A stretch of 64,000 nucleotides of DNA, from the NCBI GenBank assembly GCA_038249055.1, contig JBBRWS010000006.1:927-64926 (forward strand). The letters are read 5' to 3'. The notes below the pieces were generated by a model, which ran no database searches, was not told the DNA's origin, and saw nothing but the letters and a program-made list of their open reading frames with translations. Shown here one piece after another: positions 4,015 through 44,776 of this stretch. The translations under genes and the position numbers were made by a program. How positions within the stretch are numbered: position 1 is the stretch's first letter; each line of letters begins with the position of its first letter. Origin of the DNA: Minisyncoccia bacterium. Its GTDB lineage: Bacteria > Patescibacteriota > Minisyncoccia > Phycocordibacterales > UBA9973.

Positions 4015-4698
4015 TTAGAAATCTACTCCAGCTGCTGTCTTACCCAAAATTAATAAGTTAGTACCAGTTTCATAATAAAGATTACTATTTCCACCGTCAC
4101 TTAAATATTTATTGTCAGTTGAAGTATATGCTGTACTTTCTAGAGTAGCATCAATTTCAAAACCAATAGGACTTTGTGAACATCCATAACGATAAACTAA
4201 GTCTGTATTTGCAACATTAGTGCCTGGGGTTGCAACTGTATTTATAGGGTCAACAGGAACATTTGATATTGGAGAACCTCCAGATATATTTCCAAAATTA
4301 ACAGGAATCCAACCTGTACCATTTGTAAGTCCTGGAGTTGCTGATTGCACTAAAGCTGGAACACTGCCAGTTCCACCGTCTAATGTTGCATCTGTCATAG
4401 CAGTTCCAGATGGAAGAGAGTAAAATATTTTATTTGTTCCTGCCCATGTTCCAGTTGTAGCCTGACATTCAGCATTTGATGCTAAACCTCCTAGGTATAC
4501 AGGTGAGACACTTGTCATATAAAGACCAATAGCTGTTTTTAATGTACTCAAGTCGGAGATACGTTGAGCATCACGCGCCTTTTTTAAAGTTTCTGCTGGA
4601 TTCAAAACAATAACAAGAGCAACGGAAAGAATAGCTAAGATAGCTATAACAATCAAGAGCTCCAACAATGTAAAACCACCCTTTTTATTCTTTTTCAT
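4015..4698 (-). CDS. Type IV pilin/pseudopilin (prepilin with class III signal peptide)
   Basis: The likely start is MKKNKKGG|FTLLELLIVIAILAIL (internal ATG of the track ORF 4015..4743). This is a classic prepilin leader with an N-terminal hydrophobic helix. The C-terminal Cys pair is compatible with a disulfide loop. Confidence 0.8.
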   Translation of the reverse strand: MKKNKKGGFTLLELLIVIAILAILSVALVIVLNPAETLKKARDAQRISDLSTLKTAIGLYMTSVSPVYLGGLASNAECQATTGTWAGTNKIFYSLPSGTAMTDATLDGGTGSVPALVQSATPGLTNGTGWIPVNFGNISGGSPISNVPVDPINTVATPGTNVANTDLVYRYGCSQSPIGFEIDATLESTAYTSTDNKYLSDGGNSNLYYETGTNLLILGKTAAGVDF

Positions 4699-4897
4699 AA
4701 AAAATATATTTATAGAAATAAAATTATTAATAATATATAACACTTCGATATGGTAATTATATCAAAAAACATAAAAACAAACAAACAATTGTGGATAACT
4801 ATATTAAAACATTCAACATTTATAATAAATAGTGACCACTAGATATCTTAAAAAAATTCTTTTTAGTATTTATTAAGTAAAGAAATAAATTTAAAAT

Positions 4898-20287: not shown

Positions 20288-21802
20288 ATGCAAAAAAAAG
20301 AAACAGAGCAACAAAAAATTGGTTATTTTATAAAAGAATTAAGAGAGCGCCGCAATATGACTCAGGACGCTTTTGCAAAAGAACTTGAAACTTCACAAAG
20401 TGCAGTGGCTCGTATGGAAAAAGGAGAGCAAAATTTCAGTACTGAAATACTTGGAAAAATAAGTGAGGTGCTAAATCATCAAATCGTTTCAATAAACAAT
20501 TCTATTGATTTTCAGATAACTGGTGGTAGAAAATTACATGGAAGTATAAATACAAACTTTTCTAAAAATGGTGCCGTTGGGCTTCTTTGTGCTTCCCTTT
20601 TAAATAAAGGTAAGACTACCCTTCACGGAATCGCACGCATAGAGGAAGTTTACCGAGTAATAGAAATACTTGAAAGTATTGGGGTTTCAGTTAAATGGAC
20701 AGACCATAATTCAGTTTTAATTATACCTCCTGTTAAATTTAATTTAGATAAGATAAATGTAGAATCTGCAGTAAAAACTCGCTCAGTAATAATGCTCATT
20801 GGTCCTCTAATACACCTGCTCCCCTCATTCTCTATTCCTCATGCTTCCGGCTGTAAACTTGGTAAGCGTACTATTAGTGCTCACACTTATGCACTAGAAG
20901 ACCTTGGTGTAAAAATTAAAACATTAAATAATGAATATAAAATAGAAAGCAAAAAATTAAAACCTGCTAATATTATAATGTACGAGGCAGGAGATACAGC
21001 TTGTGAAAATATTCTTATGGCCGTATCAAAAATAAAAGGTACCACAACAATACGTTTTGCTAGTGCAAATTATATGGTTCAAGAAATATGCTTCTTCTTA
21101 GAAAAGTTGGGTGTAAAAATAGAAGGGATAGGAACATCTACACTTGTTGTTCATGGAGTAAAAGATATAAACATGGATATTGAATATTACAACAGTGAAG
21201 ACCCTATTGAGTCTATGATGTTCATTTCTGCAGCAATCGCAACAGATTCTGAACTTAAAATATTGAGATGCCCAATAGACTTTCTCTCTTTAGAAATTGA
21301 AAAATTAAAGAGAATGAATTTAAAATATAAAATCCTTAAAAAATATAAATCATTCAACGAGAGAACAAATTTAGTAGATTTACATATATTCCCTTCTAAA
21401 TTGAAAGCTCTTGAAGATAAAATTCATGCAAATCCCTATCCAGGAATAAATATGGACAATCTTCCCTTCTTTGTGCCTATTGCCATCAAGGCAAAGGGTC
21501 AAACTATGATTCATGACTGGGTATATGAAAACCGTGCTATATACTTTACAGAGTTAAATAGATTAGGTGCTAGTGTTACTTTGGCTGACCCACACAGAGT
21601 TTATATTCAAGGTGGCACTCCTCTTAAATCTGCACAAGTTGTATGTCCTCCAGCACTTCGTCCAGCTATGATAATTCTCATCGGAATGCTCGCAGCTAAT
21701 GGTACATCGATTCTACGTAATGTATATATGATTAAACGTGGATATGAAGAGATAGCAGAGCGATTAAATGGAATAGGTGCTGATATTAAAATCCTAAAAT
21801 AA
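20288..21802 (+). CDS. murA: XRE-family HTH domain fused to UDP-N-acetylglucosamine 1-carboxyvinyltransferase MurA
   Basis: The N-terminal roughly 65 aa (IGYFIKELRERRNMTQDAFAKELETSQSAVARMEKGEQNFSTEILGKISEVL) form a Cro/C1-type HTH. There is no stop and no internal ATG before the MurA core. The core begins ...DFQITGGRKLHGSINTNFSKNGAVGLLCASLL and carries the SGCKLGKR active-site Cys loop. Confidence 0.75.
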   Translation: MQKKETEQQKIGYFIKELRERRNMTQDAFAKELETSQSAVARMEKGEQNFSTEILGKISEVLNHQIVSINNSIDFQITGGRKLHGSINTNFSKNGAVGLLCASLLNKGKTTLHGIARIEEVYRVIEILESIGVSVKWTDHNSVLIIPPVKFNLDKINVESAVKTRSVIMLIGPLIHLLPSFSIPHASGCKLGKRTISAHTYALEDLGVKIKTLNNEYKIESKKLKPANIIMYEAGDTACENILMAVSKIKGTTTIRFASANYMVQEICFFLEKLGVKIEGIGTSTLVVHGVKDINMDIEYYNSEDPIESMMFISAAIATDSELKILRCPIDFLSLEIEKLKRMNLKYKILKKYKSFNERTNLVDLHIFPSKLKALEDKIHANPYPGINMDNLPFFVPIAIKAKGQTMIHDWVYENRAIYFTELNRLGASVTLADPHRVYIQGGTPLKSAQVVCPPALRPAMIILIGMLAANGTSILRNVYMIKRGYEEIAERLNGIGADIKILK

Positions 21803-25012: not shown

Positions 25013-25615
25013 ATGGAAAATGCACAAAAAACAAATATAGAAAAAATATTACCCAAAGATATAATTTTACAATTAGAAAATTTGGGTATTAAAAATATAG
25101 AAATATTAAAAGGAGATATTCTTGATATCGGAGCGGGAGATGGTAATTTGGCTAAATATTTATCTCAAAATATAAATTTAAAAGTAACAGCATTAGATGA
25201 AAATCCACCAGAAAAGCCTGAATTTGAAATTATTAAAGGAGATGCTAAAAATCTACCTTTTGAAAATGAATCATTTGATATGATAATATCCCATGCTTCA
25301 ATACCCAATATTTTTATAAGTTTATATTCTTTTGAGCACCCAGAATTATCAGAAAATGAAATACGAAATGCCGTTAAAAAATCTTTTAATGAAATAATAA
25401 GGGTTTTAAAGAAAAATGGAGAAGTAAGAATTTCCCCTGTTATTATGTCAGATAATTATAATTCACAAAAAATATTGAAAGAAATAATCCTTAGTGAATT
25501 GGAGTCATTAAGAAAAGATGGGTATTCTGTTAATAATGATTTCATTAGAACTGAATTTAATCCTTCAAATAAAGAAAAAACAGATATGTACAGAATTATA
25601 ATACATAAAAAATAA
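25013..25615 (+). CDS. Class I SAM-dependent methyltransferase
   Basis: Motif I ILDIGAGDGNLAKYL, motif post-I ALDEN. Confidence 0.65.
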   Translation: MENAQKTNIEKILPKDIILQLENLGIKNIEILKGDILDIGAGDGNLAKYLSQNINLKVTALDENPPEKPEFEIIKGDAKNLPFENESFDMIISHASIPNIFISLYSFEHPELSENEIRNAVKKSFNEIIRVLKKNGEVRISPVIMSDNYNSQKILKEIILSELESLRKDGYSVNNDFIRTEFNPSNKEKTDMYRIIIHKK

Positions 25616-25638: not shown

Positions 25639-26406
25639 TTAGAGTTTTTTTACTTCTATACACATAAACATAGGAATCTCTTTGCGAGCTTTATCTTCAG
25701 CCATTTGGCGAGGGCCAATACCACTTTGTTTGTGAGAAATCCATTCTTCAAGCCTAGTAATAGCAAAACCATTTTTAGAAAGTAATTTCATATAATATTG
25801 AAGTGAACGATGAAATGTTATTGTACTAATTTTCTTTTTGAGATTTTTTTCTCCTGGAGTCATATCAATAGATAATTTAGATTCTGAAAGATATTTATGA
25901 ATTATGCGTGATTGTATTCCGTTTTCAAAAAACCAATCACTTCCCTGAGGAACACGAAAAGCGGGATGATTTAATACCAAAACGATTCGTCCATTATTTT
26001 TAAGAATTCTCTTGCATTCTGCAAATACTTCACTAACATTTTCTATATTTTGAATTGCCAAAACGATAACAATAGTATCAACAGAATTATCTTTAAGGAA
26101 TTGAGATCTATGCGCCGGAGAAATGTAAAATGTTACTTTTTCTTTTGAATTTTTTTTGGCTGTTTCTATAAGCTTTTTAGATAAATCTGATGCAACTACA
26201 TTTGCGCCAGCATGCGCAAAAACGTTTGCAAAATAACCTTGCCCACAAGCAAGGTCTAGAACCTGCTCTCCTTTCCTCAAATCAAGAACTCTTAATAAGT
26301 TCGGTAAAATAACCTTAGCTTGATAACTATCGTCATTTTTTAATAAATCATCATACCAATCGGCTACTTTATTCCAGGAAGTATCTTTATTTTGAGAGTT
26401 TTTCAT
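25639..26406 (-). CDS. Class I SAM-dependent methyltransferase (UbiE/COQ5-like)
   Basis: Motif I VLDLACGQGYF. Acidic residue after beta2 (VASDLS). Confidence 0.7.
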   Translation of the reverse strand: MKNSQNKDTSWNKVADWYDDLLKNDDSYQAKVILPNLLRVLDLRKGEQVLDLACGQGYFANVFAHAGANVVASDLSKKLIETAKKNSKEKVTFYISPAHRSQFLKDNSVDTIVIVLAIQNIENVSEVFAECKRILKNNGRIVLVLNHPAFRVPQGSDWFFENGIQSRIIHKYLSESKLSIDMTPGEKNLKKKISTITFHRSLQYYMKLLSKNGFAITRLEEWISHKQSGIGPRQMAEDKARKEIPMFMCIEVKKL

Positions 26407-26542: not shown

Positions 26543-28030
26543 TTATTCGATTATTGTCATATCTTCAGGCCGAATTTCTTTATCTTCATAATCTTCTATT
26601 TTTTCTTTCCTCTTTATCAACAAAAAAGAAGTTATACCTATTCCAATAATTACAATTAGCCCGATAAATGGATAAGTGGATTTGGGTAACTCAAACTCAG
26701 ATCCCGATGCACTAGCTGCCAAATCATTTAAGTTTATTATTTGTGAATCTTTAAACAAGGTATCTTCTTTTTCTTTAATATATGTATCCGAATTATTATT
26801 AATGAAATTTTTTATTGTTGGATTTTTTTGTATTGGTTTCTTTATCTCAATCGGGTATGAAGCAACTATTTCTTTATTAGGATTCATTATAAATACAGAT
26901 TTGATATCCTCCGATATAAATCCGGTTATTCTTGATGAAAATTTTATTTTATTACCCGCCAACAGTGTAGTCCCTACAGGGATAATAAAATAATGAGATT
27001 GAGCTGTAATCACCCAATCAGAAAGAGAAATATCGTAATTTGATTTATTTTCAATTTCGATAAAAGGATCAGTATCATCTCCAACTGAACTTATGTAAAC
27101 TTCTGAAGGAATAACTTTTATAACCATTTTATTTGTCGCATCAGGTTCTTTGCTAAAATAACTATCAAAATAAGAAAGAGATAATAAATATTCTCCAGGG
27201 TATTCATAAACGTATTTAAAAGGACCATCTTCTTTTACTTCAACAACCATGCCATCACCAAAATTCCAAACAAATCTTCCAACAGCATAAATTTCTCCCC
27301 TATTAGTTGTAGTCAACGAACTAAATGAGAAAGGAATTCCAGCTAAAACTATTTTTGGTGATATTATTTTTGTGGTTATTTTTAAAATATCTTGTTTCTC
27401 TTTACTTGTACTAGAACTTGAGGTATTTGAACCAGAATTTGCAGTGGTGGTATTTATATCACCAGTATCTATAGTGTCAGCTGTAGTTTCGTTATTGTCA
27501 CTTAAGCTACTGGCGCTTTGGTTTGTTTTACCAGGAGTAGGAATACCACTTACCCATTCTCCATCTATTTTCGATAAAGAACTCTTGGAAGCCTTACTTC
27601 CTCCTTTTGAAATATCATATGTGACATCATCAATAATTGTTTTATTTGAATCTGAAATTGCAATATAAGTATTATCCCCACTATCAGGTAAAGAAAGTAC
27701 GGAGGCACTAAAAACCATATCAAAAAATTCAAGCCAGTTATAATCAGTTTGACTTTTTGCAATAACTGCATATTTTGATGATTGTAAAATTGTACTTTCT
27801 CCAATCTTTAATGTAATAGGCCCAGAATTTTCGCCATGGAAAAATCTATATTTATTTAAATCAACTGATGTAGTTCCATTGTTGTACACTTCTATCCATT
27901 CATAATCAGAACCGCCTTCTGGAGAATACATAATTTCGGTTATTTCCAGATTGGCATATGCTAAATTTGCCCAAGAAAAAAATATTATAAATACAATAAT
28001 ATAATATTTTAATTTAAGTTTAAAAAGCAT
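26543..28030 (-). CDS. Lamin-tail-domain (LTD) surface protein with signal peptide and C-terminal TM anchor
   Basis: The N-terminus LEITEIMYSPEGGSDYEWIEVYNNGTTSVDLNKYRFF matches the LTD pattern (I.E.MY.....D.EFIELYN....VDLSGW). Ser/Thr-rich linker. C-terminal PFIGLIVIIGIGITSFLLIKRKEK. Confidence 0.6.
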   Translation of the reverse strand: MLFKLKLKYYIIVFIIFFSWANLAYANLEITEIMYSPEGGSDYEWIEVYNNGTTSVDLNKYRFFHGENSGPITLKIGESTILQSSKYAVIAKSQTDYNWLEFFDMVFSASVLSLPDSGDNTYIAISDSNKTIIDDVTYDISKGGSKASKSSLSKIDGEWVSGIPTPGKTNQSASSLSDNNETTADTIDTGDINTTTANSGSNTSSSSTSKEKQDILKITTKIISPKIVLAGIPFSFSSLTTTNRGEIYAVGRFVWNFGDGMVVEVKEDGPFKYVYEYPGEYLLSLSYFDSYFSKEPDATNKMVIKVIPSEVYISSVGDDTDPFIEIENKSNYDISLSDWVITAQSHYFIIPVGTTLLAGNKIKFSSRITGFISEDIKSVFIMNPNKEIVASYPIEIKKPIQKNPTIKNFINNNSDTYIKEKEDTLFKDSQIINLNDLAASASGSEFELPKSTYPFIGLIVIIGIGITSFLLIKRKEKIEDYEDKEIRPEDMTIIE

Positions 28031-28036
28031 AAATGA

Positions 28037-30235
28037 TTATTCCAATACTTTACGAAGAATATCTTCTGGAACTTCTCTTTTAGCTTTTGGCTTTTGCCAA
28101 GAATTATTTTGATCTTCTTGTTTATTTATTAATTGTTCTTCTTTTTTGGGTTCTTCATTTTTTTCTATCTTTAATGATTCAGTTTCTACTTCTTTTTCTT
28201 TTATTATTGGTTTATTTTCTATCACTACATCCTGCTCTTTATTTGCCAATATATCCTCTTTTTTAGAAACACTTACTTCTTTTATTTTTTCAGTATTTAA
28301 AGTTGATTCTGTTTTATTAGCCATAGAAATCCTTGCTAATACGTCTTTTAATGAAGCCTTATTCTCTTCAGATGCTTCTTTAGTAGGTAAAATATTTATA
28401 TTTTTTACATTTGGATTATCATTTCTTTTTAATTCAGAAAGAGACATCGGAGCTTGCTTAGGAACAATATTTTCCTCTATTTTAAATCCTTCTTTAGAAG
28501 ACGGTTCCTTGCCACCTATTGCAATTTTTTCTAATAAACCTCTTAAAAGTGGAGATGGGCCAGTGTGTTTCTTTTTTTCTGCAAACTGTGTGCCATTTAT
28601 ATTACTTGGTTTTTGTGCTAAAGGTTGGACCAATGATTTACCTGAATAATTTTTAAAATTATTTTTCTGAGTAGGTCCCAATTTTACATCTAAAGGTTTA
28701 AATTCTATTCCTAGTGCTGCAAGAGGAGCAGTGGAAACTTTCTCTTCTTGATTTGCAGAACGTGACGCTACGAAACCACTTTCAGGCTTGAGCTCCCCAC
28801 TTTTAATTTTAAACATGCATTCCTTACAATATACAGGTCTACCTTCTTTGGGTTCAAAAGGAACCATGGTAGATTTTTTACAATTGGAACAATCCGCTTT
28901 GTATTTTGCATCACCTTCTCCCACCTGAAGCATACCACTCCATTTTGAAATTTCATTTTCAACTTCTTCTCGTGGACGAGTAAATAATCTACGTGATGAT
29001 TCTATAATTTTTTCCTTAACTCCCTTGGATACATCAATTTTTATTGGAGGAAGAGTTGTAGCAGAAAATGGGCGACTAGTAATACCATCAATCATTAATT
29101 TGAGGTAAATATTATAGTTAGGAAGATTTACTAAATCTTGAGCCATGAATTCAGGTTCAAATTCTTTTTCTAAAAAATCAGCATCGTCTGCTCCAACGCG
29201 GAATATTATCATAGTTCCAACGTTACCAAAAACAGCATCACGAACTTTTGAGCCATCTTTATTTTCAAGCTGAGCTGTATATTGGTGAGCAACTGTAAGA
29301 TTGAGTCTATATTTACGAGCTTCAGAAAGAATATTTGCGAATGAATCTGTTGCAAAATTTTGGAATTCGTCGACATAAAGATAAAAATCTTTTCTATCTT
29401 CTTCTGGAATACGTACGCGTTCCATAGCAGCAAGTTGTATCTTTGTAATAATCATACCTCCCAATAAGGCAGAGTTATCTTCTCCGATACGTCCTTTTGA
29501 CACATTCACAAGGAAAATTTTTCCTTCATTCATTATTTTGAAAATATCAATAGTTGATTTTGGCTGGCCTAAAACATTTCGAATAATAGAAGTTGAAAGA
29601 AATTGCCCAACTTTGTTTTGAATCGGCGCTATAGCTTCATTACGAAATTGGTCACGCCATTGTTCATATTCATGGACCCAAAAAGCCTTAACTACTGGGT
29701 CCTTCAAATTAGCAATTATCATTTGACGATAATCTTTATCAACTAAAAGTCTTGGAATACCCAAAAGAGTAGTTCCTGGAGTATCTAGAAGCGCTAGAAT
29801 TGCATTGTTTAAAATGTATTCCATACGAGAACTCCAAGCATTTGCCCAAATCTTTGTAAAAATACCCATGAGTCCTGATGCAACTAAGTGTTTATATTTT
29901 GGGTCATCAATTTGTAAAACATTAAATCCAATATGAAAATCTGTATCTGCGGGATTAAAATAAATAACGTCCTTTACTCTATTGTCTGGAATAAGATGCA
30001 AAATTTCTTCTACTAGTTCTCCATGTGGGTCTACGACACAAACACCTTCTCCGTTCTGTATATTTTGAACGATTAGATTAGAAAGTAATACAGATTTACC
30101 TGTACCTGACTTTCCTAAAACATACATATGTTGACGACGGTCTTTGCGTCTAATACCAAAAATTTCATTACTACTACGAAAATTCGTCTTAGCAAAATAA
30201 GTGATGTCTCTATTGTGTGGCATTTCATTGTCCAT
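28037..30235 (-). CDS. TraD/TraG/VirD4-like (T4CP-like, FtsK/HerA superfamily) P-loop ATPase with C-terminal zinc ribbon and K/E-rich tail
   Basis: Walker A GKSGTGKS, Walker B FYLYVDEF, conserved DPHGE. Zn ribbon CSNCKK...CKEC. It is a paralogue of 33059..34426. Confidence 0.6.
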   Translation of the reverse strand: MDNEMPHNRDITYFAKTNFRSSNEIFGIRRKDRRQHMYVLGKSGTGKSVLLSNLIVQNIQNGEGVCVVDPHGELVEEILHLIPDNRVKDVIYFNPADTDFHIGFNVLQIDDPKYKHLVASGLMGIFTKIWANAWSSRMEYILNNAILALLDTPGTTLLGIPRLLVDKDYRQMIIANLKDPVVKAFWVHEYEQWRDQFRNEAIAPIQNKVGQFLSTSIIRNVLGQPKSTIDIFKIMNEGKIFLVNVSKGRIGEDNSALLGGMIITKIQLAAMERVRIPEEDRKDFYLYVDEFQNFATDSFANILSEARKYRLNLTVAHQYTAQLENKDGSKVRDAVFGNVGTMIIFRVGADDADFLEKEFEPEFMAQDLVNLPNYNIYLKLMIDGITSRPFSATTLPPIKIDVSKGVKEKIIESSRRLFTRPREEVENEISKWSGMLQVGEGDAKYKADCSNCKKSTMVPFEPKEGRPVYCKECMFKIKSGELKPESGFVASRSANQEEKVSTAPLAALGIEFKPLDVKLGPTQKNNFKNYSGKSLVQPLAQKPSNINGTQFAEKKKHTGPSPLLRGLLEKIAIGGKEPSSKEGFKIEENIVPKQAPMSLSELKRNDNPNVKNINILPTKEASEENKASLKDVLARISMANKTESTLNTEKIKEVSVSKKEDILANKEQDVVIENKPIIKEKEVETESLKIEKNEEPKKEEQLINKQEDQNNSWQKPKAKREVPEDILRKVLE

Positions 30236-30247
30236 ATATTATTTTTA

Positions 30248-30460
30248 TTATAACAACAAACGAGGAGCGCATGCAAATAAATACCAATTTATTTGCATTG
30301 CGTCCGAGAGCAGTTGTTCTATAGTACTCTATATAACAACAAGAAAGGAGCATAAGCAAATTAATTAATATTTATTTGCTTAATGTCCGAATGCCGTTGT
30401 TATATCGTAATCGATATAACAACAAGAAAGGAGACAAGCAAATATTGAATTCTTAAATTT
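30248..30460. repeat. Tandem palindromic repeat array (about 2.5 units of about 82 bp) upstream of the T4CP-like gene
   Basis: Units begin with ataacaacaa(g/a)a(a/c)(g)gag at 30253, 30336 and 30416. Each has an internal hairpin gcaaataaat..atttatttgc. A perfect 12-bp inverted repeat gttgttatatcg-taa-cgatataacaac sits at a unit junction. Confidence 0.75.
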
Positions 30461-30561
30461 AATAATTGACAGACTTATGCATTATGATAGTATTAAAACA
30501 AATATAAAGTTCATCATAAGAGTTTTAAATAGTTCTAGTATTTACTTTAAATCAATACCGT

Positions 30562-31089
30562 ATGAAAAAATGGTTTTTCTTAATGGTGTGTTTAATTATT
30601 TCTTTCACTTTTGTAAAAGAAATAGCAAATTCCTCAAATTCACCACCGCAAAACAAAATGTTAGCAATGGATGAATCTCTTCTGGTAATTATGCCTGGTA
30701 TTGAAAGTGGAGTCCAAAAACTACAGATCCCAATTGCAATCTCGGAGGTATTGTATATCAAAAAGAATTTTTCGTTTTGTGCTGTGTTACAAACCGTAAG
30801 TATGTGCCCCATGGTAAGTAACAATTTAATGAAAAATTACCCAACGAAAAATTTACCTCAGTTAGCTAAGAACCAAATTGAAATGGTATCTGCAAATCCA
30901 ACCATGGAGGGGTTGGTTATCAAAAAAGATTTTACTAATTTTTCTGGAGTTAATTATCTTATTGATGCAAGCAAACGTTGTACAATTTATGCAACATCAC
31001 AATCATTCCAGCTATCAACCGTGGAGGGGTTATGTATCAACGAAAAAGTTAATTCTTTTCCAGTAAATTTTACCGGCTTCATTGCATAG
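30562..31089 (+). CDS. Secreted hypothetical protein (signal peptide)
   Basis: N-terminal MKKWFFLMVCLIISFTFV signal peptide. 175 aa with an internal repeat. Confidence 0.35.
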   Translation: MKKWFFLMVCLIISFTFVKEIANSSNSPPQNKMLAMDESLLVIMPGIESGVQKLQIPIAISEVLYIKKNFSFCAVLQTVSMCPMVSNNLMKNYPTKNLPQLAKNQIEMVSANPTMEGLVIKKDFTNFSGVNYLIDASKRCTIYATSQSFQLSTVEGLCINEKVNSFPVNFTGFIA

Positions 31090-31156
31090 TAAAGATTAAA
31101 GTAAACGTGATTTTATATTTTTAGCCTTGGACAATTGTTCAGGGCTAAATTTTTAT

Positions 31157-31570
31157 CTATTTATTTAAAATTGAGGAGTGAAAAATTTCAGGCTTATATG
31201 GATTACCAAAAATAACTTCCATATCAGGGAAATTTCCATTTTTTATTGTTTGGGTTAAATTTTCATATAGGGGTTTTTGGTCATAACCTAAGAATACAAC
31301 ATCAGGCTTAACCTCTTTTAAAATGTTATATGTACCAATCTTCGGATCACCCAAAAGGACAAGATCTATCCCCTCCACTTCTAAAAGTGTTTTTATCCTT
31401 TCAACTTCATTATGCTGAGGTAGTTTACCTTTTAATTCTTTTACTATTTCATCTCGTGCAACGATAGCTACAAGATGATTCCCTTCTTTTTTCGCCTCAT
31501 CAATAAAGGCCAAATGACCTTCATGTATTCCATCAAAAACACCAAAAATTACTACGGTTTTATTAATCAT
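31157..31570 (-). CDS. Cytidylyltransferase-like nucleotidyltransferase (HxGH motif)
   Basis: VVIFGVFDGIHEGH at the N-terminus, the (T/H)xGH nucleotidyltransferase signature. 137 aa. Confidence 0.6.
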   Translation of the reverse strand: MINKTVVIFGVFDGIHEGHLAFIDEAKKEGNHLVAIVARDEIVKELKGKLPQHNEVERIKTLLEVEGIDLVLLGDPKIGTYNILKEVKPDVVFLGYDQKPLYENLTQTIKNGNFPDMEVIFGNPYKPEIFHSSILNK

Positions 31571-31573
31571 ATT

Positions 31574-31879
31574 TTATTCAATAACCTCCATCATCCATTC
31601 TTTATATGGATGATTTATTCGACGGACATCGACTCCTGCAATAAGGGGAACACTATAGGTATGATTTTCTGAAATAATTTGGTTCAATTCTTCAATTTTT
31701 GATTCAAAAGTAGTGATGAGTAACATTGCTTGATCTACACATTGGAAAGAGCCTTCCCAATTGTAGCAAGATGATATTGGCCAGAAATCCACACGAGCAG
31801 CAATTTTACTAATAACTACTAAGCTACCGAGCTCTTTAGCTTCCTCGATGGTTTTGCATGTTGTGTATATAAATACCAT
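31574..31879 (-). CDS. cutA: Divalent-cation tolerance protein CutA
   Basis: 101 aa. The pattern IYTTCKTIEEAKELGSLVVISKIAARVDFWPISSCYNWEGSF...HPYKEWMMEVIE matches CutA1. Confidence 0.65.
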   Translation of the reverse strand: MVFIYTTCKTIEEAKELGSLVVISKIAARVDFWPISSCYNWEGSFQCVDQAMLLITTFESKIEELNQIISENHTYSVPLIAGVDVRRINHPYKEWMMEVIE

Positions 31880-31977
31880 AAAATATATAAATAATTAAAC
31901 AGAATATTAATATAATCTGGGTAAAATTATCTACAATTTTAATTGTAGCATCACAAAAAGATTTGTAAACAAAAAAA

Positions 31978-32010
31978 TAAAGGTAATCGCAATGCAATTA
32001 CCTTTATTAT
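31978..32010. terminator. Rho-independent terminator (bidirectional)
   Basis: aaaaataaaggtaatcgcaatgcaattacctttatt. Confidence 0.7.
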
Positions 32011-32014
32011 AATT

Positions 32015-32875
32015 CTAATCAAAAAACTTTTTTAAATGATGACTCCTATATGGACTCCGCATTAACTTAATCGTTTTCTCTTTGATTTGTCTGACACGTT
32101 CAGGAACTAAATTTAATTTTTCTGAAATTTCACCGATAGTCATCTTGCGACAGTTTATACCATAAAACATTCTGATAACATCAGCTTCTCTTGCTGGAAG
32201 AGTATTTAATACTCTTTCTATTTCAAAAGAAAGTGATTCAAGCATTAAAGTTTTATCTGGACTAGGTGATTCACCATCTACAAGAATATCTAGAAAGCCA
32301 TAATCCTCTTCACCATTAAAAGAAGAGTCAAATGATATCTGCCGACTTTGAGCGCGAAGACTTTCTGATATTTCAACGGGCGTTAAATCAAAGAAATCCG
32401 CAATTTCATCAACCGAGGGATTGCGTTCGTTGTCTTGTTCAAATTTAGAAGAAAATTTATTGATTTTATTCAACAAACTTTTCCGATTTAAAGGTAAACG
32501 AATAACTCTAGATTGATCGTTTATTGCAGAAAGTATTGATTGACGAATCCACCAAACTGCATAAGAGATAAACCTAAAACCTCTGGTCTCATCAAACCTC
32601 TCTGCTGCTTTAATCAATCCCAAGTTCCCTTCATTAATAAGGTCAGACAAACTTAACCCTTGGTCCTTGTACTGTTTTGCAACAGAAATAACGAAGCGTA
32701 GGTTTGCCCTTACCAGTTTATCTACTGCATCACGATCGCCTTTTTTAATTCGTTGAGCTAACTCAACTTCTTCCTCAACAGTAACTAGCCCCTCCTTTGA
32801 AACTTCTTGAAGATATTTTTCCAAAGAAATACTTTCCCTGTTTGTAAAAGATTGAATAATTCTTAATTGTCTCAT
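32015..32875 (-). CDS. RNA polymerase sigma-70 family factor (RpoD-like, regions 1.2-4)
   Basis: Region 2 is ANLRFVISVAKQYKDQGLSLSDLINEGNLGLIKAAERFDETRGFRFISYAVWWIRQ. Region 4 HTH is KMTIGEISEKLNLVPERVRQIKEKT. Confidence 0.85.
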   Translation of the reverse strand: MRQLRIIQSFTNRESISLEKYLQEVSKEGLVTVEEEVELAQRIKKGDRDAVDKLVRANLRFVISVAKQYKDQGLSLSDLINEGNLGLIKAAERFDETRGFRFISYAVWWIRQSILSAINDQSRVIRLPLNRKSLLNKINKFSSKFEQDNERNPSVDEIADFFDLTPVEISESLRAQSRQISFDSSFNGEEDYGFLDILVDGESPSPDKTLMLESLSFEIERVLNTLPAREADVIRMFYGINCRKMTIGEISEKLNLVPERVRQIKEKTIKLMRSPYRSHHLKKFFD

Positions 32876-33058
32876 ATTAACCCGCCCCCTGCGCAGGATT
32901 TTAAATAAAATTATTTAAAATTATTATAACACAATTTAAGTAGAATACAAGACAAATATAATTTTGTTTTAAAAAATATTACTTATTTTTTTAACTTTAT
33001 TAAATAAACAGCCTAATTTTATTATCTGTTATTAATAATTAAATTTTACAATAGTAGA

Positions 33059-34426
33059 TTATTCTTCTGCAATTAATCTATGGGCCTCGTTTGCTGAAAT
33101 AGCATATTTTGCGCGTGAAGCTTCTATCACTTCTTTACGATAAGATTGATGGGTGGGAGGGAGAACTCTTAGTGTCTCTGCAGAAAATGGATCATAACTC
33201 TCTCCATCTATTGTCATTTTAATATAAAATTCTCCTACTCCAAGATTTATCATATCTTTAACATCAAAAACTGGAGCAAATTCTGGTTTAAGTTTTGTGG
33301 CATCATCACCTCCAACTCGGAATGAAACAATAGTACCTATATTGCCGAGTACGGCCTGTTGCACCTTTGGTAAAAGCTGACTAATATATTGATGAGCTAC
33401 TATTAGATTTATCCCATACTTACGAGCTTCAGATAAAATATTTTCAAATGTATCTGTAATAATATTATGGAATTCGTCTATATATAAATAAAAATCATGT
33501 CGATCCTGTGGTCCAAGTTTTGCTCTTTCCATCCCCGCTTGTTTTATTTTAGTCAAAAAAATAGCTCCAAAAAAAGAAGAATTTTCTTCACCAATTTTTC
33601 CCTTTGAAAGATTAATTAAAATAATTTTCTGATTATTCATTAATTGTTCCAAATCTATTTTATTTTCTTTTTGTCCAAAAATATTACGAAGCATTGGGTC
33701 TGATAAAAATTGTCCCAATTTATTTACAAGAGGAATAATAGTATCTGTATCAAATTTTTCAGACCAGTCAGCGAATTCAATGGCCCAGAATCTTTTTACC
33801 ATTTCATCTTGTATATACTCAGTGACTTTTTGACGATAATTACGATCAGTAAGCATTAAAATCATCCCTCTCATATTAGCTTCCGGATAATCGAGTAAAG
33901 CTAAAATCGTAAAACGAAAAACATGCTCGAGACGTGGAGACCAATTTGCACCAAATTGCTTACGTAACACTTCTATCAAACCTTGAGTTAGTTGGTGTTT
34001 AAAAGTTGGATCAATATTTGCAAGAGGGTTAAAAGATGCTGGAAATTCTACGTCACCTGGATCAATAATACAAACATCATCTATTCTATCTTTTGGAATA
34101 AAATTTAAAATATCTTCTATTAGTTCACCGTGTGGATCAATTACACAAATACCTTGACCATATGCAATATCTTGGCGAATCATTAATTCTTGAATTTTTG
34201 ATTTACCAACACCAGACTTACCAATAATATACATATGTCTCCTACGATCTATACGCTTTATGCCAAAGACGAATTTTTTTTCTTCCAATGCTGCCACATA
34301 ATTGGTACGTCCAATAAACACAACTTCACTTGGGTCTGACTTTCCTAAAGTTGCCAAATCTGGAGGTGGTGGAGCATATTTAATTATTTGAATTTTATTT
34401 GGTTTACTGAAAGACATTGTATTCAA
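33059..34426 (-). CDS. TraD/TraG/VirD4-like (T4CP-like) P-loop ATPase, paralogue 2
   Basis: Walker A GKSGVGKS, DPHGE, Walker B FYLYIDEF. 455 aa. Collinear with the N-terminal two-thirds of 28037..30235. Confidence 0.6.
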   Translation of the reverse strand: MNTMSFSKPNKIQIIKYAPPPPDLATLGKSDPSEVVFIGRTNYVAALEEKKFVFGIKRIDRRRHMYIIGKSGVGKSKIQELMIRQDIAYGQGICVIDPHGELIEDILNFIPKDRIDDVCIIDPGDVEFPASFNPLANIDPTFKHQLTQGLIEVLRKQFGANWSPRLEHVFRFTILALLDYPEANMRGMILMLTDRNYRQKVTEYIQDEMVKRFWAIEFADWSEKFDTDTIIPLVNKLGQFLSDPMLRNIFGQKENKIDLEQLMNNQKIILINLSKGKIGEENSSFFGAIFLTKIKQAGMERAKLGPQDRHDFYLYIDEFHNIITDTFENILSEARKYGINLIVAHQYISQLLPKVQQAVLGNIGTIVSFRVGGDDATKLKPEFAPVFDVKDMINLGVGEFYIKMTIDGESYDPFSAETLRVLPPTHQSYRKEVIEASRAKYAISANEAHRLIAEE

Positions 34427-36083: not shown

Positions 36084-36269
36084 TTAAACAAGTAAAAAAT
36101 ATGAGCATCCATACATTTATAATATTGAATATATGGGCGCTTATATTAACTTGCAAAAAATATAAAATACGGTAAGATAGGAGTATCTTAATTATTAATT
36201 TAATAATTATTGGGTTTAGTTAGATATTTAATTCTTAATTGGTCATTCTTAATTATTAATTATATTATT

Positions 36270-36342
36270 GGGCCTTTAGCTCATCTGGTAGAGCGCCTCA
36301 TTTGCAATGAGGAGGTAAGCGGTCCGAGTCCGCTAAGGTCCA
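36270..36342 (+). tRNA. tRNA-Ala (anticodon TGC) with G3:U70
   Basis: GGGCCTTTAGCTCATCTGGTAGAGCGCCTCATTTGCAATGAGGAGGTAAGCGGTCCGAGTCCGCTAAGGTCCA. Anticodon arm cctca-tTTGCAa-tgagg. Acceptor G3-T70 wobble (the Ala identity element). CC follows and the final A is not encoded. Confidence 0.85.
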
Positions 36343-36349
36343 CCCGTTG

Positions 36350-36382: not shown

Positions 36383-36520
36383 TTAGGTGGACCTTAGCGA
36401 GCAAACTACTTTGCTCGCGTGCGGCGATTAGTAAATCGAACCGTGAGGAACTCGGAAAGCTTTTCGTTATAAATTTTAATTTAATAATTTAAATTTATCG
36501 AAAAGGTGTACTGAAGCAGT
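36383..36520 (+). other. Conserved tRNA-downstream non-coding module, copy 2
   Basis: ggaccttAGCGAGCAAACTACTTTGCTCGCGTG...TCGAA...GGAAAGCTTTTCGTT...CGAAAAGGTGTACTG. The motif order is the same as at 15811-15942. Confidence 0.6.
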
Positions 36521-36732
36521 AGGCTTCGAGAAATGTAATCATGGTCCGCCTATCGTGATACACAATATTTAGATGCAAAGCATACTATATAAAAAGTTTT
36601 AGTCGCGGGTGAGAAGCGCGAATAAGTACATTCGCCTACTGGGTACTCGCGGTCCGCTACTTGTAGGCTTCGAGAAATGTACTCATGGTCCGCCTTTCGT
36701 GATACACAATATTTAGATGCAAAGCATATCAC
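36521..36732. repeat. Two 65-bp direct repeats
   Basis: aggcttcgagaaatgta(a/c)tcatggtccgcct(a/t)tcgtgatacacaatatttagatgcaaagcata occurs at 36521-36585 and 36666-36730. The track ORF 36550..36732 is a translation artefact of this repeat. A partial copy of the tRNA-Ala T-arm (gcggtccgcta) lies at 36651-36661. Confidence 0.85.
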
Positions 36733-36791
36733 ACAATAAAAACAGCCATCTTAAAAAGACAGCTGTTAATTTAAACTTAGGATAAAAAAAA

Positions 36792-38872: not shown

Positions 38873-39850
38873 TTATTCCCATTCAAATTTTCTTCCAAAA
38901 TGTCCCCACGTGCAAGTATCAGAAAATTTAACAACATCCAATTTCAAGTGATTATGTATCCCCTTTGGAGTTAAATCGTAATCAGTTATTTCTACTTCTT
39001 TTCCATCTATTACAGCCACAGCCATTACTGGCTCACTCTTACCTATTGCATAAGCAAGCTTTGTATATACTTCTTTCGCATTATGCTTCTTTAGTAAGTC
39101 CACAGCTATTTTACGAGCCATATAAGCACCAGAGCGATCTACTTTTGTATAATCCTTACCAGAGAAAGAACCTCCTCCAATTGTAATCTCTGGTCCATAG
39201 TTATCTACTATCAATTTTCTTCCAGAAAGTCCTGTGTCTGCATCAAATCCACCTTGATTCCATTCTCCCGCAGGATTTATAAGATATTCTTCTGATTCAA
39301 TAATATTTTTTACAAGTTCTAAAAGTTTATCGTTTTTAGTATTTTGAAAACTAGCTACGACTGTAGTAACGACACCATTATCTACTGTCACTTGAGTCTT
39401 TCCATCATAAGGATATACTTCAAATATTTTCTGACATAAATTTCGGGCAAGATTATATTCGAGAGGTAAATATGTATCAGTCTCACTTGTAGCATAACCT
39501 TTCATTATTCCTTGGTCTCCCGCTCCACCCGTATCAACTCCTTGTGCTATTTCTGGACTTTGTAAAACTATATTCGACAAAATTTTAAAATCTTTACCTA
39601 CTATTTTTTTTATAATAGCTTCTATGTCTGGATTTGATTTTGAAGTAACTTCTCCATTGATGGCTACCAGATTATGCCCACCCATTACTTCTATAGCACA
39701 ACGACTATTCTTATCTCCTTCTAAATATGCATCTAAAATACTATCCGCAATAAAATCACATATTTTATCTGGGTGCATTGGACTCACAAACTCTGCAGTT
39801 TTTTTACTCATGCTTGATTTATAAGGAAGAATGACTATATAAATCGGCAT
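38873..39850 (-). CDS. metK: S-adenosylmethionine synthetase (short form)
   Basis: Near the N-terminus: FVSPMHPDKICDFIADSILDAYL (the GHPDK motif). Also GGGAFSGKD. The likely start is the internal ATG (MSKKTAEF..., about 39811). Total length is about 312-325 aa. Confidence 0.8.
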   Translation of the reverse strand: MPIYIVILPYKSSMSKKTAEFVSPMHPDKICDFIADSILDAYLEGDKNSRCAIEVMGGHNLVAINGEVTSKSNPDIEAIIKKIVGKDFKILSNIVLQSPEIAQGVDTGGAGDQGIMKGYATSETDTYLPLEYNLARNLCQKIFEVYPYDGKTQVTVDNGVVTTVVASFQNTKNDKLLELVKNIIESEEYLINPAGEWNQGGFDADTGLSGRKLIVDNYGPEITIGGGSFSGKDYTKVDRSGAYMARKIAVDLLKKHNAKEVYTKLAYAIGKSEPVMAVAVIDGKEVEITDYDLTPKGIHNHLKLDVVKFSDTCTWGHFGRKFEWE

Positions 39851-40165
39851 CCTGTTAAATAAGATTTAACAGGGTTGATTAAAATATAATACGCTTCGCT
39901 CCTTTATTTTAATTAAAAAATTCCTCATAATGAGGAAAGATATAGATGACTAGTCTTATCTTTCCATAATAATACACTTGCATTATTTGGCTGGATTTAG
40001 CACCTTGCTTTCGCGGGTTGCTGATGGGTCATTGAGCCAGTTGCTCTCGCCATACTCTTGATAACTAACTATTTAGTTGTAATTTTATTATAGCATAATT
40101 TTATAAACAAAAATATTTCCATAAAAAAAATAACGAGGATATATCCTCGTTATTTTTTTATAATA

Positions 40166-42361: not shown

Positions 42362-43153
42362 TTAATATCTCCTAAAACTTCCTTGCGTGCGCAATACTGG
42401 CTTATAATATGAACTAAATGATTGTCTATTATTATTTTGAATTGAATTTGCTATATTTTTATTCGCATATATATTAGCAACATGTTCATCGACTGTTATA
42501 TTTATTGTCTGACAAGCATATGATAATTTCCCTATTGCAAACTGAACTTCATTTTCATTTAATTTTTCTTGATTGTATTTTTTAATGCATTCAATCAACT
42601 TATTGAGATAAACCACGTTTTCAATTGGTTCTGTTTTTATTTCAGCTTCCCCTGTGAATACAACAATATTATAAAAATTATCTTTAGCAAAAGGCATCAA
42701 ATCTTTCAGCGCCATCAAGTGCCCATAATTTTGATGAATAGGATTTTGAAATTTATATTTAATTGCCCCTGGCATTGATTGTGTCCATGTTGATTGATTT
42801 TTACTACCAAAAATCCACCCTTTTAAATCTTTACTTTCTAAAACAAAAATTCCAAATTTAGAAACAATTATATGATCAATTTGAGTTGACCCATTATTTT
42901 TAGAATTTATAATAATATTATTAAATATAAAATAATCAGTATAACTTAATTCAGCAGCAAGCAGATCTGCAACTTTTTGTTCTCCAGAATTTAAACCTTC
43001 CATATAGCATTTACATGCATGTTTATTTTTATTATTATATCTAATTTTTTGTAATTCGTATGGGAAACTTCTATCTTTAAACAGCCATTTAAAAAACTTT
43101 ATAATCAAATATATAATTATTACATCTAATATCAAATAAAATAATATATCCAT
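42362..43153 (-). CDS. NERD (nuclease-related domain) protein with N-terminal TM
   Basis: N-terminal hydrophobic helix. The NERD core is QIDHIIVSKFGIFVLESKDLKGWIFGSKNQSTW. Confidence 0.55.
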   Translation of the reverse strand: MDILFYLILDVIIIYLIIKFFKWLFKDRSFPYELQKIRYNNKNKHACKCYMEGLNSGEQKVADLLAAELSYTDYFIFNNIIINSKNNGSTQIDHIIVSKFGIFVLESKDLKGWIFGSKNQSTWTQSMPGAIKYKFQNPIHQNYGHLMALKDLMPFAKDNFYNIVVFTGEAEIKTEPIENVVYLNKLIECIKKYNQEKLNENEVQFAIGKLSYACQTINITVDEHVANIYANKNIANSIQNNNRQSFSSYYKPVLRTQGSFRRY

Positions 43154-44008: not shown

Positions 44009-44776
44009 CTACTTCAATTTATATTTACCTGCATCAATAAAATCAAGGTAATTTTTATCTCTTAAAAATTGTAATTGCTGACGAATTTTATCTTTAATGT
44101 GTTTATTTTCTGGATGAATGTTTTTTAATTCAGACTCAAACTTGTATATATCCGCTAATGTAAACTCTTTTTTATTTAAAGAATCAATACAATTCATAAT
44201 GTCTAAAATCCAACCCTTTGCATCTACTTTTTTAATTTTCTTTAAAAAAACTGTTTTTTGCCATTTTTCTAAAACCTCTTTTTTAGAAATCTCTTTACCA
44301 TTTTCAACATAAAAAACCTGTCCTGCTTTTGGTATTTTTGAAAAAATTATATTTGAACCAACCCAACCAGCTCTTCGAGCAGTTTTTTTTAATGGCTTCC
44401 TCTTTTCAATAATTTCTGGAATAAAAAAATGCTTAGGGATGATAAAAAAATCATTTACAAACAATGTTTCTAAATATCCCATAAAAAAGAAATTGGGTTT
44501 ATTTTTAGAACTTATTCTTTCAATCATTTTAGAATAAGCCCCAGCAGGTATAGTTTTTCTAATTTTTCCTTTTTTAGATTTCAATTCAAAATCTTCAATA
44601 CATTTTTTACAATAAAAATCAGCAACTGGCTTATTATTTTCGTATTCTTCAATATTAGTATTTCCACAATTTGGACAATATATTTGTTTTAAAACCCAAT
44701 TTTCACTTATAACTCTTATTTTTTGGGTTTCACTTAAATATCCAATCCCTAGTTTTTTATCTAAAGTTAAATTCAT
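44009..44776 (-). CDS. DpnI-like (Dam-replacing family) methyl-directed restriction endonuclease
   Basis: N-terminal YCPNCGN...PVADFYCKKCIEDFELKSKKGK and NPNFFF, RKPLKKTARRAGW, IRQQLQFLRDK. These strongly resemble DpnI-family proteins as I remember them (recalled, not searched). Confidence 0.6.
   Translation of the reverse strand: MNLTLDKKLGIGYLSETQKIRVISENWVLKQIYCPNCGNTNIEEYENNKPVADFYCKKCIEDFELKSKKGKIRKTIPAGAYSKMIERISSKNKPNFFFMGYLETLFVNDFFIIPKHFFIPEIIEKRKPLKKTARRAGWVGSNIIFSKIPKAGQVFYVENGKEISKKEVLEKWQKTVFLKKIKKVDAKGWILDIMNCIDSLNKKEFTLADIYKFESELKNIHPENKHIKDKIRQQLQFLRDKNYLDFIDAGKYKLK

Follow-up and report, generated by a model that had tools for sequence, protein, structure and literature searches.

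Two orphan VirD4/TrwB-type coupling-protein-like ATPases in a Patescibacteria chromosome and the conserved partner DUF8128 in related lineages

Patescibacteria account for much of bacterial diversity and rely on their hosts to supply nucleotides and lipids. Homologs of VirD4-type type IV coupling proteins (T4CPs) have been counted in 2,918 of 3,035 of their genomes (5,713 homologs, only 148 of them near virB4), VirB4 was found in 2,417 and relaxases in 103 of the same 3,035 genomes, and exaptation was raised as a possibility for the T4CP homologs (PMC12102498). About two orphan T4CP homologs per genome are already known from that survey, in which their architecture and partners are not described. 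In one genetically tractable species a chromosomal type IV secretion system (T4SS) is essential, and its cluster is without a recognizable coupling protein or relaxase (PMC10633639). Here we describe two paralogous ATPases, long (L) and short (S), encoded in a stretch of 64,000 nucleotides from a Minisyncoccia bacterium (GenBank assembly GCA_038249055.1, contig JBBRWS010000006.1, positions 927 to 64,926), hereafter the window, in whose numbering coordinates are given. Both L and S belong to a Patescibacteria-wide family of orphan VirD4/TrwB-type T4CP homologs and have been inherited vertically on the chromosome, and the explanation that we favor, at a probability of roughly 0.55, is that they are the motor halves of a chromosomally fixed, split coupling-protein machine.

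Two soluble ATPases of the coupling-protein type

The two genes and the parts of the longer product are the following.

28037–30235, minus strand: long paralog L, 732 aa, soluble VirD4/TrwB-type coupling-protein-like ATPase
28916–30235, minus strand: ATPase core of L, aa 1–440, with Walker A at nt 30092–30115 and Walker B (FYLYVDEF) at nt 29363–29386
28808–28903, minus strand: CxxC-x17-CxxC zinc ribbon of L, aa 445–476 (zf_Tbcl_2, PF23477 / TIGR04272)
28040–28738, minus strand: lysine- and glutamate-rich (K/E-rich) tail of L, aa 500–732 (233 residues), poorly conserved and with a high gap fraction
33059–34426, minus strand: short paralog S, 455 aa, with the same ATPase core

L and S are 44% identical over 429 aa (E = 2e-133) and share at equivalent positions the Walker A motif (GKSGTGKS at aa 41–48 of L, GKSGVGKS at aa 69–76 of S), the motif DPHGE (aa 69–73 and 97–101, respectively), and the motif FYLY(V/I)DEF (FYLYVDEF at aa 284–291, FYLYIDEF at aa 312–319). 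Because orthologs of S begin MS/MA-LNKPNK, translation of S probably starts from the ATG at 34417 and not from the TTG at 34426. Both proteins match the Pfam models TrwB_AAD_bind, TraG-D_C, T4SS-DNA_transf, and DUF87 above gathering scores; the TrwB_AAD_bind scores for the pair are 53.5 and 34.9 bits (cut-off 20.5), the alignment to L covers aa 31–348, and the sole sequence match in PDB is TrwB (E = 3.7e-9). A first-pass annotation, made from the DNA letters alone, had described the two open reading frames (ORFs) as paralogous TraD/VirD4-like ATPases of the FtsK/HerA/TraD superfamily that share these three motifs, and it is upheld by the identity of the pair, by the hidden Markov model (HMM) matches to TrwB_AAD_bind and DUF87, and by the structural matches to TrwB and HerA given below.

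A hydropathy scan found no transmembrane segment in either protein, the Walker A motif starting at aa 41 in L and at aa 69 in S, and no Pfam match to a HAS-barrel was obtained for L or S. The zinc ribbon and K/E-rich tail that had also been noted on the longer paralog are both present: lysine and glutamate account for 29% of the tail compared with 13% of the core, and a regular expression for the ribbon matches about 60 of 81 L orthologs. S has no zinc ribbon. The CxxC-x17-CxxC domain binds zinc in small proteins of M. mazei (PMC12704099).

An AlphaFold2 model of aa 1–500 of L (pLDDT 70.4, pTM 0.69) predicts a RecA-like core, a beta-beta-alpha zinc-ribbon unit, and an all-helical insertion at about aa 112–236, between the strands at aa 90–93 and 240–244. 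Such an all-alpha insertion is the trait that sets T4CPs apart from HerA, FtsK, and VirB4. In a Foldseek search of PDB the first matches of the model are HerA (4d2i), Cagbeta (8dol), TrwB (TMt 0.56–0.59), and DotL; defense HerAs and VirB4 stand lower down the list, and HerA of S. solfataricus is the top match by E value.

The ATPase family and DUF8128 across Patescibacteria

A homology search with L yielded at least 8,000 homologs, and an exhaustive HMMER scan of representatives of clusters at 50% identity retrieved 24,464 clusters at E ≤ 1e-3, of which 6,782 also pass E ≤ 1e-30. The best 120 homologs, P0001 being the window's own protein, are 69–86% identical to L and cover 99–100% of the query in 111 cases; the homologs are from Nomurabacteria or Paceibacterota, and some are named "CxxC-x17-CxxC domain-containing". 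For the comparison of loci we used the 80 best, taking one genome per GTDB species (the species loci). These span Nomura-, Jorgensen-, Wolfe-, Lipton-, Giovannoni-, Staskawicz-, Portnoy-, Doudna-, Moran-, Uhr-, and Kerfeldbacteria and thereby include both Paceibacteria-type and ABY1-type lineages. The ATPase core of the L orthologs is 59–94% identical across the species loci, and the mean identity to the window's L per 20-residue segment, calculated for 82 orthologs, is 0.50–0.93 up to residue 400. The neighbors of the ATPase in related loci are housekeeping genes throughout, and neither a relaxase nor a VirB4-containing T4SS lies within the 6–10 kb fetched on either side (the flanks) in about 90 related loci.

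The dominant gene order in other lineages is SecD/SecF, a HARE-HTH protein, a membrane protein (MP1), L, MnmA, and AlaRS or EF-P. The HARE-HTH protein is about 345 aa long and combines sigma-70 region 4 and HARE-HTH domains, and MP1, of about 440 aa, corresponds to DUF8128 (PF26449), a label taken from precomputed annotations only. In 42 of the 80 species loci the gene directly before L, in the same orientation, is that of DUF8128, with gaps typically of −14 to +50 bp, and in seven further Paceibacteria loci only S and/or the gene of a zinc-ribbon protein (ZnP) stands between the two. Starting from a DUF8128 homolog leads back to the same arrangement, namely HARE-HTH, DUF8128, a gap of 6 bp, and a T4CP-like ATPase with a zinc ribbon. 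Of the 150 top-ranking ATPase cluster representatives, 63 are single-chain fusions with DUF8128; in one of them (P0268, 956 aa) DUF8128 occupies residues 2–424 (398 bits) and the ATPase residues 424–845. These fusions provide Rosetta-stone evidence that DUF8128 and the ATPase form one machine.

The window's L is orthologous to the DUF8128-linked ATPases, since the orthologs to which it is 59–94% identical include those with DUF8128 upstream. In a neighbor-joining tree of 251 ATPase cores, which is crude and in which long-branch effects are possible, L likewise nests among zinc-ribbon orthologs including those with DUF8128 upstream. S forms one clade in this tree whose nearest neighbors are DUF8128-fused proteins, which matches the order DUF8128, S, L found in Paceibacteria loci where both paralogs lie near DUF8128.

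A structural model of DUF8128 (pLDDT 81.9, pTM 0.77) predicts a long N-terminal helix (aa 3–49) followed by alpha/beta modules. In PDB, the 13 best matches of this model are without exception chains of TrwK/VirB4 from the R388 T4SS (E values of 1e-5 to 5e-3), and the matches after these have E values of about 0.02 or worse. Searches by sequence gave nothing useful in a PDB profile search, in NCBIfam, or, for 40 members, in Pfam at E ≤ 10, and a literature search returned no paper mentioning DUF8128 or PF26449.

The closest relatives outside the phylum bear on the origin of this arrangement. A tblastn search against plasmids returned 641 records, none of them reaching 60% identity (the highest value, 39%, is on a Sulfitobacter plasmid); the matches are mostly on non-mobilizable plasmids of Bacillus and Streptomyces, and others are from haloarchaea and Sulfolobus. 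One homolog, of 812 aa and 33% identical in the ATPase core, is encoded on plasmid NZ_CP108778 of Embleya sp. in a cluster of the conjugation type, together with a PrgI/VirB3-like protein, a VirB4-like ATPase, a replication-relaxation protein, and an NlpC/P60 protein. In this T4CP a transmembrane segment is followed by an N-terminal domain of about 350 aa that is co-linear with DUF8128 over 289 columns (hhalign E = 2.4e-4), including a motif that precedes the ATPase, ..EL[AT]..H.P...AP...R..A..V.PP..[IL]P. An actinobacterial conjugative T4CP thus appears, from this alignment, to share a DUF8128-like N-domain, so that the window would hold the soluble motor halves of a split coupling-protein machine, and DUF8128 plus ATPase looks like an inherited monoderm T4CP subtype that has been split in many lineages. 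The MPF-FATA ancestry of Patescibacteria VirB4 (PMC12102498) is consistent with such a monoderm inheritance.

The same relatives bear on the idea that L and S are a housekeeping translocase of double-stranded DNA that serves chromosome segregation or division in the manner of FtsK/SpoIIIE. Conservation at the level of informational genes, the presence of the family in 96% of genomes, and the neighborhood of SecDF and of a DNA-binding protein with HARE-HTH and sigma-70 region 4 domains, to which a following DivIC-like gene is added in one locus (L087), would all suit such a role, and DUF8128 plus ATPase parallels FtsK as a membrane anchor, a motor, and a DNA-binding module. The idea is nevertheless unlikely, given that outside the phylum the family is closest to conjugative T4CPs, that the all-alpha domain is a trait of T4CPs and not of FtsK, and that the homolog in S. 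epibionticum is reported to be non-essential (PMC12102498).

Both paralogs carry clade-specific terminal peptides that follow disordered tails. The window's L ends in the conserved peptide EVPEDILRKVLE-COOH (nt 28040–28075), which is kept in the related loci L001–L023, and in the window's clade together with its sister clade the peptide takes the form EVPEDVLRKVLE-COOH. L ends in a VDLxxLRxxLxxxL helix in other Paceibacteria and in [IVL]xPGxxxxF-COOH in ABY1-type lineages. Most S orthologs have an acidic tail ending in EP[LM]I-COOH, both of which are missing from the S of the window, which has lost its tail. A pseudogenized tail was considered and rejected, there being no remnant in the 183-bp spacer.

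In the sister clade (L013–L023) dnaK and dnaJ flank the inserted pair of paralogs, and the genes run DnaK, L, (ZnP), S, DnaJ. The ZnPs are cysteine-rich proteins of 550–590 aa with an N-terminal zf_Tbcl domain and a C-terminal zf_Tbcl_2 domain, the same ribbon as in L, and one to four copies stand beside L and/or S in many Paceibacteria (e.g., L003:5712–7355, L003:13806–15470, and L013:12146–13834). The window has no ZnP.

Neighbors of the ATPases in the window

Immediately downstream of L, in the window, lies a gene for a surface protein with lamin tail domains (LTDs), composed as follows.

26543–28030, minus strand: LTD surface protein, 495 aa, starting 6 bp downstream of L
27953–28030, minus strand: signal peptide-like N-terminus (..AYA/NLE cleavage)
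27617–27961, minus strand: LTD1, followed by an S/T-rich linker
27161–27286, minus strand: PKD-like domain (weak PKD match)
about 26831–27118, minus strand: LTD2
26609–26677, minus strand: transmembrane segment, aa 452–474
26546–26608, minus strand: cytoplasmic tail of 21 aa, ending ..DMTIIE

The Pfam LTD model (PF00932) matches in two stretches with 82.2 bits (cut-off 34.3), and homologs are annotated as lamin tail domain-containing proteins; together with the signal-like N-terminus and the transmembrane segment, this bears out the earlier description of a secreted LTD protein with a C-terminal membrane anchor after a 6-bp gap. Pfam detected no nuclease domain in it.

To map the linkage, ORFs called in the fetched loci were clustered by all-against-all BLASTP and positioned relative to L. 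An LTD gene follows L in the window's clade only (the window, L001–L005, L007–L009, L011, and L012), which among the 80 species loci means L007–L009, L011, and L012; an LTD HMM run over the other loci, about 70, found no LTD ORF except for one weak match in L077. The family has 325 detectable members, all of 365–512 aa, all from Paceibacterota, and confined to this clade. All 14 loci of the clade have the LTD gene downstream of L, at a distance of 3–49 bp. In the reverse direction, three LTD members with 39–47% identity were each found 4–12 bp downstream of an L ortholog. The pair persists while its downstream neighbor varies (a methyltransferase, UDG, or ZnP), and it is also kept in L011, where S lies directly upstream of L.

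This adjacency would be expected if L and the LTD protein were a lineage-specific two-component unit, in which the LTD protein, as a type I membrane protein, recruits L to the membrane through its conserved cytoplasmic C-terminal peptide, stands in for DUF8128 or supplements it, and links the motor to an extracellular Ig-like module that binds the host surface or extracellular DNA. Besides the 14 of 14 loci, three of them reached from LTD homologs of only 39–47% identity, and the survival of the pair through gene changes on both sides, such a unit is favored by the unlinking of DUF8128 from L in the clade and by the lack of any terminator-like site between the two genes. Further, the cytoplasmic end ..DY..D[MI]TI[IV]E-COOH is conserved, although the rest of the protein diverges fast (23–63% identity across the clade), and this end may be taken as the best hint of a cytoplasmic partner. 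However, most loci of the clade share, in conserved order, the block S, CutA, CTP-transferase, L, LTD, MurA-like, MurB, Alr, so that the adjacency of L and LTD may simply be inherited. The 6-bp gap is weak evidence of functional coupling, because spacings this short are common here: of the 18 same-strand gaps in the left half of the window, 7 do not exceed 10 bp, and unrelated gene pairs are among them. The sister clade, moreover, has the same C-terminal peptide on L and no LTD gene. On balance a two-component unit seems to us a reasonable but rather improbable alternative; the LTD protein is best regarded as a lineage-specific neighbor, possibly accessory, and not as a defining component.

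Two other readings of the LTD tail were rejected. Anchoring by sortase through an LPXTG signal is not supported because the motif is not conserved among orthologs (LPKST in the window; VSNGT, LSKGA, and IPNQI in orthologs), and the tails in the clade are 21–25 aa long with a conserved acidic end, in contrast to the short basic tail of the sortase type. A motif E[IV]..PED.. common to the tails of the LTD protein and of L holds for the window and L001 only and is taken to be a coincidence.

At the left end of the window lie genes of a type IV pilus.

1177–2886: PilB
4015–4743: pilin
5569–7020, plus strand: PilM/PilN, a single 483-aa fusion protein

Of the pilus genes reported in the first-pass annotation, PilB, pilin, and PilM/N (as a fusion) were found, but PilC was not among the scanned ORFs, the Pfam scan of the window having covered 49 ORFs, that is, all but one of those of at least 160 aa (63139–63621 was left out) plus five shorter ones. 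That annotation had gone on to propose that the ATPases, the LTD protein, and the pilus form a DNA-uptake or DNA-export module of a competence-like kind. T4CP-type motors do transport DNA, LTDs are known from the extracellular nuclease ExeM (a weak N-terminal match of the LTD protein), and members of the candidate phyla radiation are thought to scavenge DNA and have ComEC in 86% of genomes (PMC6744442). Nevertheless, the pilus genes are about 20 kb from L, with MFS, MiaA, Alr, MurB, and MurA-like genes intervening, and in no related locus does a pilus gene occur in the flanks of L. The linkage of LTD is limited to one clade, no ComEC or ComEA was found among the scanned ORFs of the window, and neither the LTD protein nor the window offers a nuclease domain for such a module. 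ComFA or DprA linked to the locus was found neither in the 49 scanned ORFs nor in related loci. When conservation of genomic context was checked, as the annotation had suggested, the partners that recur across lineages proved to be DUF8128 and the HARE-HTH protein, and not LTD or the pilus. The module as proposed is therefore not supported, and we regard any such role as quite unlikely; the LTD and pilus neighborhood of this window is no basis for inferring the function of the whole ATPase family.

The remaining features of the window that need individual mention are these.

20288–21802, plus strand: MurA/EPSP-synthase-fold enzyme with an N-terminal HTH_3 DNA-binding domain
25013–25615, plus strand: class I S-adenosylmethionine (SAM) methyltransferase near the LTD gene
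25639–26406, minus strand: class I SAM methyltransferase adjoining the LTD gene
30562–31089, plus strand: unannotated ORF of 175 aa with a hydrophobic, signal-like N-terminus, divergent from L
32015–32875, minus strand: sigma-70 factor gene, followed by a terminator-like hairpin
38873–39850, minus strand: S-adenosylmethionine synthetase (MetK)
39953–40067, minus strand: SAM riboswitch (Rfam RF00162, 51.5 bits), upstream of the MetK gene
42362–43153, minus strand: NERD-domain nuclease
44009–44776, minus strand: DpnI-like methyl-directed restriction endonuclease (Pfam DpnI and DpnI_C)

The methyltransferases raise the question of an anti-phage defense module of the HerA or MADS type. The best PADLOC match of both ATPases is mad8 (E = 3e-16 and 2e-14; HerA matches are weaker and partial), the methyltransferase two genes downstream of L matches mad2 (E = 8e-23), and defense HerA structures appear in the Foldseek list. 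The mad2 match, however, covers only the generic SAM-binding region (positions 273–404 of 492), which a second, unrelated methyltransferase matches as well, and the methyltransferase linkage is missing in L092, L094, and other clades. In the MADS model MAD6, MAD7, and MAD8 are mandatory (bioRxiv 10.1101/2023.03.30.534895); MAD6 and MAD7 are absent among the neighbors, as is a Sir2, NurA, or DUF4297 partner, and the family is near-universal, vertically inherited, and set among housekeeping genes. A defense role is largely refuted and strikes us as very improbable. The generic mad2 matches of the two methyltransferases and the mad8 match of the ATPase could mislead automated callers of defense systems.

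A remnant of an integrated conjugative element is suggested by the T4CP domain family itself and by the tRNA gene and the DpnI-like gene elsewhere in the window. Yet no VirB4, VirB6, relaxase, or integrase domain was found in the 49 scanned ORFs, in agreement with the first-pass annotation, which had seen no other conjugation genes, and the base composition of about 30% G+C without a compositional island is that of an ordinary Patescibacteria chromosome. Chromosomal synteny is conserved, identity is 59–94% across classes, and relaxases are present in only 103 of 3,035 Patescibacteria genomes (PMC12102498), so that the idea is refuted for practical purposes. Neither a plain HerA in a defense context nor a flanking conjugative element, the two findings on which the first-pass annotation would have abandoned its assignment, was encountered.

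Rightward of the pilus genes (1–7 kb) the window encodes, in order, LytR_C, a GTPase, a CrtC-like gene, MFS, MiaA, Alr, MurB, the HTH-MurA-like gene, a kinase, an HD protein, UDG, and the methyltransferases, after which comes the ATPase/LTD region. Beyond that region lie Nramp, tRNA-Ala, cupredoxin, MetK, PLD, the NERD protein, and the DpnI-like gene, followed by a P-type ATPase, a histidine-kinase-like gene, Ddl, and UvrC/A/B. Between the paralogs the minus strand holds the sigma-70 gene, as the first-pass annotation had placed it, with CutA and a cytidylyltransferase-like gene, and the plus strand holds the one unannotated ORF. A promoter scan gave fewer matches than were found in shuffled sequences.

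Several further observations concern individual neighbors. The unannotated ORF has no Pfam, NCBIfam, or PADLOC match and is followed by its own terminator-like hairpin (31120–31149); an opposite-strand gene of similar size without a Pfam match occupies the same place in L003, L006, and L092–L094, a correspondence of position only. The fusion of HTH_3 with the MurA-like enzyme is kept in the relatives L001, L003, and L092–L094. Directly downstream of tRNA-Ala(tgc) (36269–36345) is a 77-nt direct repeat in two copies (36519–36595 and 36663–36739), 91% identical and 144 nt apart, which by eye seems richer in G+C than the AT-rich spacer and matches no Rfam family at the gathering score. The repeat may represent two small RNA genes or what is left of an attachment site.

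The proposed split coupling-protein machine compared with known systems

The machine that we favor can be drawn as follows. L and S are soluble P-loop motors that, by homology to TrwB and HerA, would form ring hexamers and translocate a polymer at the expense of ATP. In most Patescibacteria the missing membrane domain would be supplied by DUF8128, with its membrane helix and alpha/beta domain of about 350 aa, as the gene orders and fusions of the relatives suggest. The zinc ribbon, disordered tail, and terminal peptide of L probably provide a tethered site at which a substrate or partner docks; such a role of the L and S tails is plausible because TraD of the F plasmid engages TraM through its C-terminal tail. 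A monoderm conjugative T4CP is the most likely ancestor of the machine, which may feed the relaxase-less chromosomal T4SS in trans or work alone on nucleic acid. In the window's clade, L would have moved away from DUF8128 and come to be co-transcribed with the LTD/PKD surface protein, DUF8128 being encoded elsewhere or lost.

A number of results weigh against this explanation. The best scores against the NCBIfam equivalogs for TraD and VirD4-like CD1115 proteins are 50–56 bits, far below the cut-offs of 250–650, and the predicted structure of L is of moderate quality (pLDDT 70). Neither DUF8128 (searched by HMM) nor the HARE-HTH protein has a homolog in the 64-kb window, and DUF8128 is absent from the flanks in all 24 loci of the window's and the sister clade, so that the bipartite arrangement is seen in relatives only; in the same two clades the HARE-HTH protein is likewise absent from the flanks of L and S. 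The likeness of DUF8128 to TrwK/VirB4 is at the level of the fold (TMq 0.33–0.40, with the matched part of TrwK unreported), hhalign of DUF8128 against an actinobacterial VirB4-like protein was negative, and with such modest TM-scores and no sequence-profile signal a "VirB4 N-domain-like" DUF8128 is a lead and not a result. The hhalign probability for the N-domain of the Embleya T4CP against DUF8128 is only 44%. Finally, the reported non-essentiality of the S. epibionticum homolog (PMC12102498) sits awkwardly with the very high sequence conservation of the family.

The split machine can also be extended to a more ambitious picture, in which DUF8128 and the ATPases are a hitherto unrecognized, near-universal membrane translocon of Patescibacteria, a hybrid of a VirB4-like N-domain and a VirD4-like motor that was domesticated from monoderm conjugation and fixed beside SecDF and the HARE-HTH protein, that moves nucleic acid or nucleoprotein between episymbiont and host with or without the relaxase-less T4SS, and to which lineage-specific adaptors such as the LTD protein dock via C-terminal peptides. 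Taken as a whole we consider this picture doubtful. In its more modest form, the split machine turns the orphan T4CPs of Patescibacteria into a defined and testable system with soluble motor halves, a DUF8128 partner, and clade-specific docking peptides.

Among known systems, HerA and MAD8 of the MADS system share with L and S the common fold of the FtsK-HerA superfamily and the Pfam match to DUF87; they differ in that L and S have the all-alpha insertion, have no HAS-barrel and no NurA or other nuclease, Sir2, DUF4297, MAD6, or MAD7 partner, and stand in a housekeeping context. The layout of VirB4/TrwK, a membrane-associated N-domain and then a motor, is mimicked by DUF8128 plus ATPase, as the top 13 PDB matches of the DUF8128 model indicate, but the motor here is VirD4-like and not VirB4-like. 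The T4CPs, namely TrwB of R388, VirD4, TraD of F, Cagbeta, and DotL, have the same combination of a RecA-like domain with an inserted all-alpha domain. Unlike them, L and S are without an N-terminal transmembrane domain, L has a CxxC-x17-CxxC zinc ribbon, and the two are chromosomal, near-universal, vertically inherited, and present as two paralogs per genome with no relaxase or T4SS nearby. The Embleya T4CP differs from L as a single chain with its own N-domain and no zinc ribbon that sits in a real conjugation cluster. On the Gram-positive plasmid pIP501 the soluble coupling ATPase TraJ is recruited by the membrane protein TraI within a T4SS operon, and L and S resemble TraJ as coupling-type ATPases without a membrane domain of their own. 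The long, variable C-terminal tail of L with its conserved terminal peptide recalls the tail of F TraD.

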